Source of the DNA: Promethearchaeota archaeon Loki_b32
GTDB lineage: Archaea > Asgardarchaeota > Lokiarchaeia > Sigyniarchaeales > SOKP01
Direction of reading: 5' to 3'
DNA: 20,656 nt
Assembly (NCBI GenBank): GCA_005223125.1
Contig: NJBH01000052.1
Coordinates: 1 to 20,656, forward strand
Numbering within the stretch: the stretch's first letter is position 1; each line of letters starts with the position of its first letter. The notes beneath the pieces are model-generated. The model saw only the letters and a list, made by a program, of their open reading frames with translations. It ran no database searches and had not been told where the DNA came from. A program made the position numbers and the translations under genes. This document shows positions 3,873 to 16,336 of this stretch, piece by piece.

Positions 3873-4277
3873 TTATTCTACATCTTCTACTTCAAACCAT
3901 ACGGGAGATTTATTAAATGGCTCTCCGTTGTAATTTACTGTTATTTCTTCGTCTTTAGAAATATCTCGAATTGTAATATGTTCAATGCATTTATTTTTAT
4001 AATCGTAGACATATTTCACATTCGGATTATAAGAATGATTTATAAACTGGCTAGCACTTAAGGATATTGCTGATTCATATTCTCCTTTACAATTAGGATC
4101 GTCCCATTCATAAGAATAATTAGATAAAACAGTATCTTCAATTAAATCCCATCCTTTATTAGAAATGAGGATAATATGAGCAATATTTATCTTTGTTCCC
4201 TTTCTTATATTCTTTTTAGCAAATACTCCTTTCCCTTTTTTTGCAGAGATATATTTTACCTCTATTAACTTATTCAA
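3873..4277 (-). CDS. SET domain protein-lysine methyltransferase (copy 2)
   Basis: KGKGVFAK (motif I), FINHSYNPN (NHS motif), RDISKDEEITVNY (ELxxxY motif); no post-SET cysteine cluster. Confidence 0.9.
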   Translation of the reverse strand: MNKLIEVKYISAKKGKGVFAKKNIRKGTKINIAHIILISNKGWDLIEDTVLSNYSYEWDDPNCKGEYESAISLSASQFINHSYNPNVKYVYDYKNKCIEHITIRDISKDEEITVNYNGEPFNKSPVWFEVEDVE

Positions 4278-4391
4278 TAAGACATCGCCACACTGACAAA
4301 TAATATAGTTATAATAGGAGGTTTTTTCATTAAACTTTTTACTATAATTATGATTTCTTAATTAAAACAATTATTTTATTAGATTTATAGA

Positions 4392-4787
4392 TTACTCTAT
4401 ATCAAACCATACAGGACTCTTATCGTTAATGAGTCCGTTGTAATTTACTAATAGCTCCTCTCCTTTGGGTATATCTCTAATAGCAGAAAATTCTATTACT
4501 TTATTCTCATAATCGTACAAATATTTAATATTAGGTTCATAAGAATGATTAATAAATTGACTTATACTTAATGTAATTGCATTTGTGAATTCGGGCTCAT
4601 GTTTGGGATCTTCCCAAATATAGCAATAATTAAATAAAATTGTTTTTCTAATTTTTTTATAATCTTTATTTGGAATTGGGACTACATGGGCAATGTCTAT
4701 AATTGCTTCCTTTTCGATATCTCTTTTTGCAAATACGCCTTTACCTTTCTTTCGAGATATAAATTTAACTTCTAACAAATCATTCAT
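4392..4787 (-). CDS. SET domain protein-lysine methyltransferase (copy 1)
   Basis: KGKGVFAK, FINHSYEPN, RDIPKGEELLVNY; colinear with the neighbouring paralogue, including SPVWF near the C-terminus. Confidence 0.9.
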   Translation of the reverse strand: MNDLLEVKFISRKKGKGVFAKRDIEKEAIIDIAHVVPIPNKDYKKIRKTILFNYCYIWEDPKHEPEFTNAITLSISQFINHSYEPNIKYLYDYENKVIEFSAIRDIPKGEELLVNYNGLINDKSPVWFDIE

Positions 4788-6718: not shown

Positions 6719-7270
6719 TTATATAAATATTATTATAAATAAAATTAAGAATAGGGGCGTCAGAAAATCAGCAAGAGATGTAACAAAGGGAATCAAAAAA
6801 TTATTTGGATCCATCCCACGCTTAAATAAGAATATTGCACCAATAAATAATGTTATAAACATTATGAAAAAAAGCAATAAAATTGTAAGAGTAATAATAA
6901 AACTCATCAATAATGGATTAATAATTTTAATACCTGAAATAACCCCTACTAAATAACCTAAAAATAATAGAGAAACTAAACTTAATAAAAGAGTTATTAA
7001 TAGTCCATAAAAATCTTCTTTTAATCTTTCTGATATCTTAATTTTTGGAGATAATGTACCAATATAAAGATGCGTAGTTAATCTTGACACAAGAACCGTA
7101 GATATATCTCCAGTTAGAGAATTTAAAGCTGGAATTATTAGCAGCATTATTGGAATACTGTATAATATTTCTTCATTTGAAGATAATAAAGTACCAGAAA
7201 TTAATCCCATTAATGAAGAAAGAATCACAATAATTATGGATTCTTTAATAATCTTTATGTAGTAGTTAAT
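6719..7270 (-). CDS. MgtE/SLC41-type divalent cation transporter, membrane half B
   Basis: IPALNSLTGDIST and GMDPNNFLIPFVTSLADF motifs. The frame is open upstream of the GTG at 7228 to 7270 (INYYIKIIKES...), matching KIIKET of half A; start codon uncertain. Confidence 0.8.
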   Translation of the reverse strand: MNYYIKIIKESIIIVILSSLMGLISGTLLSSNEEILYSIPIMLLIIPALNSLTGDISTVLVSRLTTHLYIGTLSPKIKISERLKEDFYGLLITLLLSLVSLLFLGYLVGVISGIKIINPLLMSFIITLTILLLFFIMFITLFIGAIFLFKRGMDPNNFLIPFVTSLADFLTPLFLILFIIIFI

Positions 7271-7825
7271 TCAAGGCACCCCCAGCATTATAATTGTTAA
7301 GAAAAAGCAAAATACAGTAGAAAAATCGTCAATTGCAGTCATTACAGGATTAACAACATTATTTGGATTTAACCCTTTTTTGAAAGCTAAATAATTTAGA
7401 CCCGTAGAACAAGGAACTGAAATTGATAATGTTAATACGATTGAAATTATTGGTATTGTAATGAAATACTGATTAGAAAGAATATATAATTTGAAGAAAA
7501 TTAGATTTAAGATAATAGAAAAGATACCTATGAAAATTGCCGTAATTATTGAAAGAGTATACGTTGCCAGAACATTTTCAATCCAGGATCTCTTAGAAAA
7601 ATTACCAATAACTAGATCACGGGAGGTTCTAGCAATGAATGGCCCACTTAAATTACCTCTTAAAGACAGGAGAGCAGGAATCATCAAAAGTAAAACAAGA
7701 AAACTATCAAAAGGAAGAATTAAAAGTGATAAAACGATCCCAGCTAATAGATCTCCAACAATCGAGACGACTTCTGATGGGAAGGTTTCTTTAATAATTT
7801 TGCCTTTAGAGTCTTGAGTTTCCAT
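7271..7825 (-). CDS. MgtE/SLC41-type divalent cation transporter, membrane half A
   Basis: IPALLSLRGNLSG and GLNPNNVVNPVMTAIDDF motifs; about five TM segments; GAGGT upstream of the ATG. Confidence 0.85.
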   Translation of the reverse strand: METQDSKGKIIKETFPSEVVSIVGDLLAGIVLSLLILPFDSFLVLLLMIPALLSLRGNLSGPFIARTSRDLVIGNFSKRSWIENVLATYTLSIITAIFIGIFSIILNLIFFKLYILSNQYFITIPIISIVLTLSISVPCSTGLNYLAFKKGLNPNNVVNPVMTAIDDFSTVFCFFLTIIMLGVP

Positions 7826-12953: not shown

Positions 12954-13250
12954 TTAAGCGCTTTCCAATTTGAATAAGATAGAAGCATGGGGAATGTAGA
13001 ATTCATCCTTCTTCTTAATTACGACTGTGTGAAAATATTCAGCAAGACCGAGGAAACCACGAATAACTGATTCATCTTCCTCGAATCTGAAGATTACAGA
13101 AGCAATAGCGGCCCCTGTACTGAAGCTAACTTTATCATAGACTCTTTCGTCAATTAGAGGGATTTTAAGCTCATTTACAATTTCATATACCCTTTTTTCA
13201 CAAACCTAACGAGATGCTAAGCCTATTATGAAGAGTTCACGTTTAGGCAT
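12954..13250 (-). CDS. 98-codon hypothetical protein interrupted by an in-frame TAG at codon 15 (nonsense allele, sequencing error or recoding); absent from the ORF track
   Basis: Manual translation: MPKRELFIIGLASR*VCEKRVYEIVNELKIPLIDERVYDKVSFSTGAAIASVIFRFEEDESVIRGFLGLAEYFHTVVIKKKDEFYIPHASILFKLESA-stop. GGTGA lies 7 nt before the ATG; no in-frame ATG follows the TAG (13206-13208). Confidence 0.75.
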
Positions 13251-13551: not shown

Positions 13552-14253
13552 GTGGTTTCAAAAGAACAGAAAAAAATTGAACGAGTAATTAATTTTATGA
13601 AAAAAGGGTTAACTTCTTTAGCTGATGATCTAGAAGAAACTGTTAAAGGGTTAAATGATTTTATCAAATCTTTAGCTAAAGCTCAGAAGGATTTGAAGGA
13701 AGTCTCTGTTGTTGACGAAATTCAAACTGTAAGCACTTCCTCTAAAAAAATAGTAACGCCAACAAGTGAGGGTGCTAAAACAGCAGCAGCCAGTACATTA
13801 TTTAGCTTATTAAGCAGCGGTGGAGGTGCTGCTCCTGCAAGCGCTCCTACTCCTGCTGTGGCCTCTACATCAGGTATTCCTGCAGCTCCTGCACCTCCAA
13901 CTGGTGGTGGGCCTCCTAAAGCGCCATCTATTGGCCCTCCAAAAGCACCAACTGGTGGTGGGCCTCCTAAGAAACCAAGTTTACCCCCTGCTCCAAAATT
14001 ACCTCCAACTGGTGGTGGGCCTCCTAAAGCACCAAGTGCTCCTTCTAGCGGTGTCCCCCCGGCAGCGCCCGCGTTTGCAAAACGACCTGCAGTTCCCGGT
14101 GCTCCTCCTGGTGGCGGACCTCCTCGTCCTCCTGCACCTGCTACTCCAGCAGCACCAGCAGTAGCTTCTCAAGCAGGTGGTGGTTTAGGTTCTCTTCGTG
14201 ATGAAATGTTAGATGAATTAAATCGTTTGAAGAAAATTATGAGAGGAGAATAA
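13552..14253 (+). CDS. Coiled-coil + proline-rich + C-terminal amphipathic helix (WH2-like) protein
   Basis: N-terminal heptad-like helix (about residues 8-52), long Pro/Ala/Gly tract with PTGGGPPK x3, C-terminal GGGLGSLRDEMLDELNRLKKIMRGE. GTG start; T-run follows the stop. Confidence 0.8.
   Translation: MVSKEQKKIERVINFMKKGLTSLADDLEETVKGLNDFIKSLAKAQKDLKEVSVVDEIQTVSTSSKKIVTPTSEGAKTAAASTLFSLLSSGGGAAPASAPTPAVASTSGIPAAPAPPTGGGPPKAPSIGPPKAPTGGGPPKKPSLPPAPKLPPTGGGPPKAPSAPSSGVPPAAPAFAKRPAVPGAPPGGGPPRPPAPATPAAPAVASQAGGGLGSLRDEMLDELNRLKKIMRGE
13897..14027 (+). repeat. Three identical 23-bp direct repeats CCAACTGGTGGTGGGCCTCCTAA (coding, PTGGGPPK)
   Basis: Copies at 13897-13919, 13948-13970 and 14005-14027; periods of 51 and 57 bp keep the frame; degenerate copy (PGGGPPR) near 14107. 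Confidence 0.95.
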
Positions 14254-15214: not shown

Positions 15215-16336
15215 ATGGGAAATCTAACAGTTGTTCTTGATATTGGGCAGTTCAGTTCAAAGATAGGCCTCGCAGGAGAGGACAGTCCATCGCAAGTGTT
15301 CCTAACGATGGTTGGAAAGCCAAAATATCAAAGTGTTAGTGTTAATTACGAATCTAAGAAATCTAGTGGAGATGAAATATACGTAGGAGATGAAATTCAA
15401 TCAATTGGGTTATATAAAATTTTCCATCCTATAGAAAAAGGCATTATTGTTGATTGGACCCATTTCAAGATTATCCTTGATTATATATTCTATAACTTGA
15501 GAGTAGATCCTACACTTGTTAATATTTTATTCGCTGTTCATCCATTATTTCCTTATAAGGATTTAGAGAAAATCTTTGAAGTTTTCTTAGAACAATTCCA
15601 AGTAATGGGATTTTATCCCGTTCTAGACAGTATGTTAACATTATATTCTGGTGGTTTTCAAACAGGATTGATTGTGGAGATTGGAGATAGTAATACAAGA
15701 ATAGTTCCTATATATGAGGGATATAAATTGGAACACGCAGTAAGGATTTTGGATATTGGAGGCAGAGTATTAACTCGTCACATGGAGCAAACTTTAGAGT
15801 CTATTGGTTGGTCAGTTGATTCCTCAATACGAAGAGAATTAGTTAGGGTTTTAAAAGAAAAGGCGTGTTTTGTCTCATTAGACTATAAAGAAGATCTGAA
15901 ACGTAGTGAACAATATGAGAAAGAATATTCTTTACCAGATGGCTCAACTATTTCACTAAATAAAGAACGGTTTATTGTACCTGAAATACTATTTAAACCA
16001 ACTTCACAATTAGAAGAAGATGCACTACACGTAGCTATAATGGATGTAATTGAAGCATGTGACTTAGATATTCGCCCTGACTTGTTGAATAACATATTTC
16101 TTTCTGGTGGTTCATCTATGTTTCCAAATTTAAAATCACGAATTTATCAAGAATTAGAATTAGAGTTAGCGAGAAGAAAGAAGAAAAGTCAAATGATTAG
16201 AATTATTGCTCCTATGGAACGTACGTTTTCTGTATGGATTGGTGGTTCAATCTTAGCAATGATTCCAGAATTTTCTCAGAATTGGATTACTCGAGCTAAA
16301 TATTTTAATGAAGGAATCCCACCAAATCTTCTATAA
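15215..16336 (+). CDS. Actin-related protein (eukaryote-type actin family, Asgard Arp-like)
   Basis: Colinear with actin: VLDIGQFSSKIGLAGED.P, YVGDE, PIEKGII.DW, VPIYEGY, LDIGGR.LT, LKEKACFV, YSLPDG..I....ERF..PE.LF.P, CDLDIR..L..NI.LSGGSSMFP, IIAP.ER.FSVWIGGSILA. Confidence 0.96.
   Translation: MGNLTVVLDIGQFSSKIGLAGEDSPSQVFLTMVGKPKYQSVSVNYESKKSSGDEIYVGDEIQSIGLYKIFHPIEKGIIVDWTHFKIILDYIFYNLRVDPTLVNILFAVHPLFPYKDLEKIFEVFLEQFQVMGFYPVLDSMLTLYSGGFQTGLIVEIGDSNTRIVPIYEGYKLEHAVRILDIGGRVLTRHMEQTLESIGWSVDSSIRRELVRVLKEKACFVSLDYKEDLKRSEQYEKEYSLPDGSTISLNKERFIVPEILFKPTSQLEEDALHVAIMDVIEACDLDIRPDLLNNIFLSGGSSMFPNLKSRIYQELELELARRKKKSQMIRIIAPMERTFSVWIGGSILAMIPEFSQNWITRAKYFNEGIPPNLL

Follow-up and report, generated by a model that had tools for sequence, protein, structure and literature searches.

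A conserved Asgard-archaeal protein with a putative assembly helix, a proline-rich arm and a terminal helix that looks most like the MIM1-like tails of ESCRT-III proteins

Introduction

Eukaryotic MIM1 (MIT-interacting motif 1) tails, with the consensus (D/E)xxLxxRLxxL(K/R), are read by the MIT domain of Vps4, the ATPase of the ESCRT (endosomal sorting) machinery, and in ESCRT-III proteins of the Vps2/24/46 class (CHMP1/2/3, IST1) they form a C-terminal amphipathic helix on a flexible, proline-containing linker. The actin-binding WH2 domain (PF02205; WASP, WAVE, WIP, thymosin beta-4) comprises a short helix of about three turns, a non-helical linker and an extended LKK(T/V) stretch, and occupies the actin cleft between subdomains 1 and 3, while scaffolds of the Ena/VASP and WAVE type join an oligomerising helix, a long proline-rich region and a terminal helix. 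Here we compare with these systems a 233-residue protein, named PRW, that is encoded by Promethearchaeota archaeon Loki_b32 on contig NJBH01000052.1; coordinates are positions in the window, that is, the whole stretch of 20,656 nucleotides that was analysed, and labels such as f1, g1, G000, C64, L047 and P0160 are our own handles for families, genera, genomes, contigs, loci and proteins.

A further counterpart is arcadin-2, the crenactin regulator of Pyrobaculum calidifontis, in which a core and a non-conserved, unstructured linker precede a small conserved C-terminal helix that binds alone, the last 17 residues occupying the crenactin groove (PDB 5LY3, PMC5173319). In the literature searched, WH2-like motifs of Asgard archaea are described only inside gelsolins (LVDV, LKDV, LRRV; PMC9433394; preprint of PMC13716822), Loki and Odin profilins were reported to lack polyproline binding (PMC8410842), and co-immunoprecipitation with Lokiactin in L. 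ossiferum recovered profilins, gelsolins, an ARF GTPase and BAR proteins (PMC13716822). The PRW family is an undescribed Asgard-wide group, no description of it having been found in the literature reached by keyword searches.

Results

PRW is a single-copy Asgard protein with a near-invariant terminal helix

The PRW gene and the parts of its product are as follows.

13552 to 14253, + strand: PRW gene, encoding a protein with a coil, a proline arm and a putative docking helix (open reading frame, about 200 full-length homologues, single copy, conserved start)
13561 to 13701, + strand: N-terminal helix (residues 4-50), its hydrophobic residues spaced much as in heptads (AlphaFold2, conservation in Lokiarchaeia)
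13774 to 13815, + strand: short helix A, AAASTLFSLLS, consensus xxLFxLLSG (invariant L83/L87, AlphaFold2)
13816 to 14184, + strand: disordered proline-rich arm with GGPPKAP-type repeats (repeat variation, low AlphaFold2 confidence)
14185 to 14241, + strand: C-terminal amphipathic helix, residues 212-230, putatively for docking, LRxEMLxELxRLKxIM (AlphaFold2, invariant residues, 49 motif versions)

The reading frame opens with a GTG, at a start that is conserved among homologues as M/V/L-VSKEQKK, and the gene is present in one copy in the source genome (4.13 Mb). About 200 full-length homologues were recovered from bins of Promethearchaeota, Loki-, Odin- and Hermodarchaeota metagenomes, every one of them an unnamed 'hypothetical protein'. 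With this number of homologues sharing an invariant tail, the features of PRW lie far beyond chance: it is a real Asgard-archaeal protein, in which a probable assembly helix and a flexible proline-rich arm lead to an end helix that hardly varies. The whole protein matched no Pfam family, among them Snf7 (PF03357), EVH1, EVH2 and WHD, nor VASP_tetra at E ≤ 10. The proline-rich region also opens two long spurious reading frames, at 13820-14164 (+, in the +2 frame) and 13999-14172 (−).

A single-chain AlphaFold2 model was built on alignment A3, which consists of PRW homologues drawn from genome loci and includes other Asgard families and classes. The layout proposed in an initial annotation, made from the sequence alone (an oligomerising helix, a short helix, a proline arm and a terminal helix), agrees with this model. 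The N-terminal helix (residues 4-50, 47 residues) is predicted with a predicted local distance difference test (pLDDT) score of ~93, consistent with a coiled coil; it is strongly conserved among Lokiarchaeia, its place being taken by transmembrane anchors in other lineages, and it is likely to be an assembly or anchoring coil. The second short helix noted earlier, STLFSLLSS, is present at residues 81-89 and falls in a low-confidence AlphaFold2 helix (75-88), with L83 and L87 invariant across Asgard classes; comparable stretches, ESLFVEALG and DSLFDFLEG, stand ahead of the proline arm in membrane-anchored and f19 forms. Residues ~89-211 were modelled without secondary structure and mostly at low pLDDT (means of ~42-71 per 10 residues). 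The number of GGPPKAP-type repeats in this arm differs between orthologues, with only two consecutive prolines in each repeat, while LPPAPKLPP (13981-14007) and FAKRP are class-level motifs that are invariant in alignment A1, and several prolines are also invariant across Asgard classes (A3). Among 20 close homologues, the first 60 residues, TLFSLLS, LPPAPKLPP/FAKRP and the last 25 residues were highly conserved or invariant.

Translation of the reading frame bears out the C-terminal sequence reported to follow a GGG linker: GGG is encoded at 14176-14184 and RDEMLDELNRLKKI at 14197-14238, both within 14176-14253, and residues 209-233 read GGGLGSLRDEMLDELNRLKKIMRGE. The model places residues 212-230 in one unbroken helix (pLDDT 80-93) that stops three residues before the C-terminus. 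Invariant across Asgard classes (A3) are L215, E218, M219, E222, R225 and K227; K228, the second lysine of LKK, is not conserved and other lineages carry LKS, IKE or LKR. On a helical wheel, L215, M219, L220, L223, L226, I229 and M230 would make one broad hydrophobic face, flanked by E218, E222, R225 and K227, and the variable residues D217, D221, N224 and K228 would lie on the opposite face, an assignment read from the alignment and the predicted helix together.

The closest relative found for the tail is the MIM1-like tail of Asgard ESCRT-III proteins

Judged by sequence comparison, the PRW tail looks most like the MIM1-like tail of Asgard Vps2/24/46 ESCRT-III proteins, the closest relative found. 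The source genome encodes a Vps4 with an MIT domain (G000:C64:87456-88685, minus strand) and two ESCRT-III proteins, and its Vps2/24/46-like ESCRT-III protein ends in ...AELEKELKRLKSDE (DEKIAELEKELKRLKSDE). Thirteen tails of this class from ten other Asgard genomes have ..ELEKEIKKLKE.. in common, and with PRW the Asgard ESCRT-III tails share the core E-phi-x-x-E-phi-x-(K/R)-L-K, where hydrophobic residues at 0, +4 and +7 are followed by a lysine. M219, L223, L226 and K227 fit the MIM1 spacing L0, L4, L7, K8, and position +3 is Glu both in PRW and in the Asgard ESCRT-III tails, as opposed to Arg in eukaryotic MIM1. An ESCRT MIM1-like helix (MxxELxxLK), listed in the initial annotation as an alternative, is upheld as a resemblance when set against Asgard ESCRT-III tails.

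Profile-profile alignment of the PRW and ESCRT-III tails with hhalign gave P = 3.9e-4 over 11 columns, at a probability of 36% (36-42% over the hhalign runs). None of 300 column-shuffled ESCRT-III tail alignments reached the real score of 17.6 (mean 7.1, standard deviation 1.8, maximum 15.3), and the similarity therefore lies in residue order, not in composition alone. When 10,544 open reading frames were scanned with a hidden Markov model (HMM) of the motif, the ESCRT-III tail ranked fifth overall and first among C-terminal matches from outside the family. The pattern E[LIM]..E[LI].R[LI]K occurred twice in the six-frame open reading frames of the genome (1.74 million residues), both times C-terminally, in PRW and in the ESCRT-III protein; since the pattern was derived after both tails had been seen, this result is supportive only.

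Several observations weigh against equating the two tails. The motif HMM gives the ESCRT-III tail just 5.9 bits (independent E-value 9), the hhalign probability quoted above is low, and position -3, where an acidic residue is expected, is occupied by Arg216. PRW conserves hydrophobic residues beyond those of MIM1 tails (L215, L220, I229, M230), making for a longer and more hydrophobic helix, and because of these a larger or different binding site is possible. Unlike ESCRT-III proteins with MIM1 tails, PRW is also without the Snf7 fold, its N-terminal part being the single 47-residue helix; its gene lies outside the ESCRT cluster (contig C64), with housekeeping genes as neighbours in distant lineages; and its motif, as set out below, sits on many non-ESCRT scaffolds and also in tandem copies.

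On this balance we tentatively favour docking of the PRW tail to the Vps4 MIT domain, as the reading suggested by the order-specific likeness of the tail to Asgard ESCRT-III tails; binding in an actin groove, considered further below, appears to us less probable.

Separately, several Asgard Vps2/24/46-class tails (e.g. L070:2068-2154 and L081:1492-1578) carry LPxVP or LPEPE directly before the MIM1-like helix. This recalls the LPPAPKLPP and terminal helix of PRW, where ~60 residues separate the two.

The tail is not a WH2 domain

The initial annotation had interpreted the C-terminus as a WH2-like actin-binding motif. As in WH2 proteins, a proline-rich region in PRW is followed by a short amphipathic helix close to an L-K-K-hydrophobic tetrad, and the remark that LKK stands about three residues nearer to the helix than in WH2 was correct. 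L223 to L226 is a step of only +3, so that there is no linker; LKKIM lies within the predicted continuous helix, and the hydrophobic periodicity of the tail continues across L226, I229 and M230. In the WH2-type tetrad, the proposed conservation of LKK held for L226 and K227 and failed for the second lysine, which varies between lineages: the third position is K, S, E, R, A, T or another residue and the fourth I, V, L, F or A, with I/L/V/F standing where WH2 proteins have T/V. PRW also has none of the C or A regions of WH2 proteins.

Neither WH2 (PF02205), the VASP tetramerisation domain (PF08776) nor any other Pfam family matched the PRW tail (32 residues) or 15 orthologous tails in hmmscan at E ≤ 10, a search in which HMMER filters drop many matches above E ~0.1 and E-values for a motif of 16-29 residues are inherently weak. 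PDB searches with the tail sequence and the tail profile returned no WH2, CHMP or VASP chain, and only insignificant, zipper-like matches. On the lack of a profile match, the predicted continuous helix and the variable second lysine, we reject the WH2 reading of the PRW tail.

A VASP-like oligomerisation helix, the other alternative put forward earlier, fared no better, as VASP_tetra went unmatched at this threshold by the whole protein and by the 15 tails alike. PRW resembles Ena/VASP and WAVE-type scaffolds in combining a putative oligomerising helix, a long proline-rich region and a terminal helix; it differs from them in a domain order other than that of VASP, in the absence of EVH1, EVH2, WHD and VASP_tetra, and in having only two consecutive prolines. 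A VASP-like, formin-like or profilin-feeding proline arm is likewise unsupported in the lineages that carry the soluble form, because Loki and Odin profilins are reported not to bind polyproline (PMC8410842) and the prolines of the repeats come only in pairs.

The tail motif recurs on unrelated Asgard scaffolds

A search of 1.84 billion representative proteins with the tail profile yielded 93 matches only. The 49 distinct versions of the motif gave the 16-residue consensus LRxEMLxELxRLKxIM, with Met at position 5 in 49/49. Beyond soluble PRW, multi-pass membrane proteins (P0160, P0167, P0196; 509-610 residues) end in a short helix, a proline arm and ..ELRGEMLKELRRLKEILKEE, an ending whose motif is shared by single-pass coiled-coil proteins (P0197, L050). 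Ras/Roc GTPases (P0159, P0185) carry one or two motif copies after the GTPase domain and then a zinc ribbon, and P0163, P0166 and P0180 have two to three tandem copies ahead of a zinc ribbon. The named carriers are all Asgard (Hodarchaeales, Heimdall-, Sigyn- and Lokiarchaeota), and membrane-anchored forms bearing the tail were found in families f9 and f28; three such forms had no CdvA or steadiness-box domain at Pfam E ≤ 5. Occurrence on scaffolds this dissimilar fits a short docking motif.

Two further arrangements were seen. At G000:C10:20653-21183 (+) (L090:6731-7183) the source genome has one more motif copy, a degenerate one (FLRNEMLDELNNLSNIIKN, 18 bits), followed by a zinc-ribbon-like module, CPxCG...CCxCY; in proteins from Hod, Sigyn and Loki archaea the unit of motif and zinc ribbon also stands after Ras/Roc GTPase domains or before another domain at the C-terminus. 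A by-eye guess that the neighbour of the C10 gene is a gelsolin was unsupported by Pfam. In addition, the metagenomic protein P0125 (549 residues) fuses a transmembrane segment, a complete PRW unit with its tail and a C-terminal TIR domain (PF13676, E = 6e-18).

Genomic context and the actin alternative

The window is AT-rich (G+C ~24-34%) and also encodes archaeal metabolic proteins, a topoisomerase, an actin-family protein and two SET-domain proteins. The SET-domain genes, arranged in tandem, and a pair of adjoining MgtE-type half-genes lie at 3873-4787 (−) and 6719-7825 (−). The actin-family gene concerns us here as context only.

15215 to 16336, + strand: actin-family paralogue, two genes downstream of PRW (PF00022, 294 bits)

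The main Lokiactin is encoded elsewhere in the source genome (G000:C38:37918-39030, 441 bits). Adjacency was counted by comparing listed coordinates by eye over ~25 fetched loci. Seven other f1 loci preserve the gene order PRW, (PIG-L), actin paralogue, small gene, topoisomerase; genes of MgtE/PhoU type recur alongside in 6/7 of these, so that the whole f1 region is syntenic. At the f3, f5, f7, f19 and f27 loci, family f3 being that of the L. ossiferum genome and probably of MK-D1, no actin-family gene was present near the PRW homologue within the fetched flanks (~3-8 kb per side). Instead of ESCRT or actin genes, linkage to which is thereby rejected for these distant lineages, the neighbours are housekeeping genes: tRNA synthetase, RNA polymerase/NusA, ribosomal and purine genes. 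Linkage to the actin paralogue is thus seen only inside f1, and we treat the paralogue as context and not as an established partner of PRW.

These data bear on an alternative in which the tail helix would bind the barbed-end groove of an Asgard actin or of the paralogue, in the manner of arcadin-2 and loosely like WH2, and PRW would tether, sequester or deliver actin. The analogy with arcadin-2 is one of layout: both proteins join a core to a conserved helix at the C-terminus through an unstructured linker. The PRW helix, with its broad hydrophobic face, would suit a deep groove, which the basic R225 and K227 might complement by meeting an acidic actin surface. The tandem motif copies recall tandem WH2 nucleators, and the actin gene is indeed two genes away here and in the seven other f1 loci. 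Against this, that linkage is part of a broadly syntenic block with topoisomerase and MgtE/PhoU genes and is not seen in the fetched flanks in the other five families, whereas arcadin-2 sits in the arcade actin cluster, has no proline-repeat arm and has no known spread onto membrane anchors; the lack of a WH2 profile match, the variable second lysine, the position of LKK inside the helix and the profilin data discussed above count on the same side. The earlier suggestion that PRW could act as a tandem-monomer nucleator is likewise unsupported, with linkage to actin confined to one syntenic family. We consider actin-groove binding unlikely, though it is the foremost of the alternatives to Vps4 docking.

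The published Lokiactin co-immunoprecipitation is silent on the actin alternative, because at the L. ossiferum B-35 PRW locus (L047:7995-8867; G138:C1:729373-730164, minus strand) the NCBI record annotates only an antisense, 230-residue, Gly-rich reading frame, UYP44328.1 (NEF87_000613, 'collagen-like'). Two start variants of the L. ossiferum PRW were searched for in a collection of 15 billion proteins, and neither was in it. If the gene set used in that study (GNAMCCOK tags) calls the locus likewise, the experiment could not have detected PRW. The co-purified ARF GTPase was also considered as a carrier of the motif and rejected, as the tail profile gives no second significant locus in the L. 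ossiferum genome.

A small protein is a steady neighbour of soluble PRW

A small gene, here called partner-90, runs divergently upstream of PRW.

12954 to 13250, − strand: partner-90, a divergent small gene with a 30-nt insertion (13197-13226) that contains an in-frame TAG (13206-13208) (neighbour clusters, alignment A2, phylum survey)

Its product, a protein of 88-96 residues, is a steady neighbour of PRW in changing arrangements: divergent and ~230-300 nt away in every compared pair of f1 genera g1 and g11, co-directional in genus g2, downstream in f5, convergent in f7, f19, f21 and f27, 1.5 kb away in f6, and unlinked in f3 (3 to 262 kb). That the two genes stay adjacent while their relative orientation shifts speaks for a functional link between them. 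AlphaFold2 predicts a helix, strands, a helix and three strands (pLDDT 92). No Pfam family matched partner-90; the best Foldseek E-value was 0.27 and the best Z in a wide VIA-align search 4.3, the ESM Atlas returned nothing beyond unnamed Asgard proteins that probably make up its own cluster, and in structure searches profilin, MIT, SepF and roadblock folds all went unmatched, a result that leaves room for distant kinship.

Partner-90 was absent from the genomes of f9 (0/3) and f28 (0/5), which are mostly 94-100% complete. Because transmembrane-anchored forms keep the tail in lineages with neither partner-90 nor the N-terminal helix, these two are unlikely to be what the tail binds; more likely, partner-90 belongs to the anchoring end of the soluble PRW form.

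The insertion in the source genome adds IGLASR*VCE, in frame, after MPKRELFI, as compared with intact orthologues (MPKRELFIKRVYEIV...), with no canonical start codon after the TAG. One intact orthologue lies at L055:8976-9239. A stop recurs at the same place in other genomes of the same genus, as TAG in five (G198, G183, G206, G204, G180) and as TAA in G205, and is hence not a sequencing error. The insert can form an 11-bp hairpin flanked by internal loops plus an outer helix (-18 kcal/mol, z -2.2); it might be a small element resembling an intron, be read through, or mark an N-terminus in decay.

In family f31 (L103:3269-4846 (−) and L102:5417-6995; genomes G331 and G333), partner-90 stands divergently beside a 525-residue coiled-coil protein and not beside a proline-arm protein. 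The larger protein has an acidic N-terminus and a C-terminal domain that looks winged-helix by eye only; no PRW homologue was detected in these two genomes.

Discussion

Taken together, the conserved tail, its recurrence on other scaffolds and its order-specific likeness to Asgard ESCRT-III tails suggest a model in which PRW would be the soluble member of an Asgard-wide adaptor family. Its 47-residue N-terminal helix would assemble or anchor the protein, probably together with partner-90, the proline-rich stretch of ~120 residues would serve as a flexible arm, and the last 19 residues, as an amphipathic helix, would act as a docking peptide, portable between proteins, that engages a conserved hub in the cytoplasm. 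That hub would most likely be the MIT domain of Vps4, which would read the peptide as it reads the MIM1 tails of the Vps2/24/46 class, and a PRW oligomer, if formed, would show several tails to the hexameric ATPase.

[quoted passage not shown] Fusion of the motif to Ras/Roc GTPases and zinc-ribbon proteins, the lack of any neighbourhood link to ESCRT or actin outside f1 and the shortness of the similarity to MIM1 tails would all agree with it, but our tests singled out no candidate, and partner-90 is an unlikely one given its absence from the f9 and f28 genomes whose membrane-anchored proteins keep the tail. Least probable by some way is a short zipper, formed by the tail with itself or with the motif on other proteins, as a VASP-like element or in a network of motif proteins: the a/d/e/g hydrophobics with flanking Glu and Arg/Lys, the weak PDB profile matches to zipper-type helices throughout (e.g. 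GCN4 EVARLKKL) and the tandem copies on many different proteins recall one, yet the helix spans only ~2.5 heptads with Arg216 in a core position, VASP_tetra and all other Pfam families went unmatched, the PDB matches are insignificant (E 0.2-1.7), and a simple zipper would seldom be so nearly invariant from class to class.

For Asgard biology, the PRW result removes a tempting but unsupported claim of a WH2/WASP-type nucleator in these archaea. It also indicates that the family escapes annotation in a model organism, so that proteomic searches on a gene set with the antisense call could not detect PRW. If the tail does serve for docking, a near-invariant docking helix on the flexible arms of soluble, membrane-anchored and GTPase-linked proteins would provide a concrete mechanism for recruiting ESCRT or actin machinery to membranes. 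A broader proposal, which we regard as somewhat doubtful, is that LRxEMLxELxRLKxIM constitutes an Asgard-wide docking code by which coils, membrane proteins and GTPase modules recruit one machine, Vps4/ESCRT or actin, and which predates eukaryotes; were this true, a eukaryotic-style, motif-based recruitment network would be older than eukaryotes themselves.

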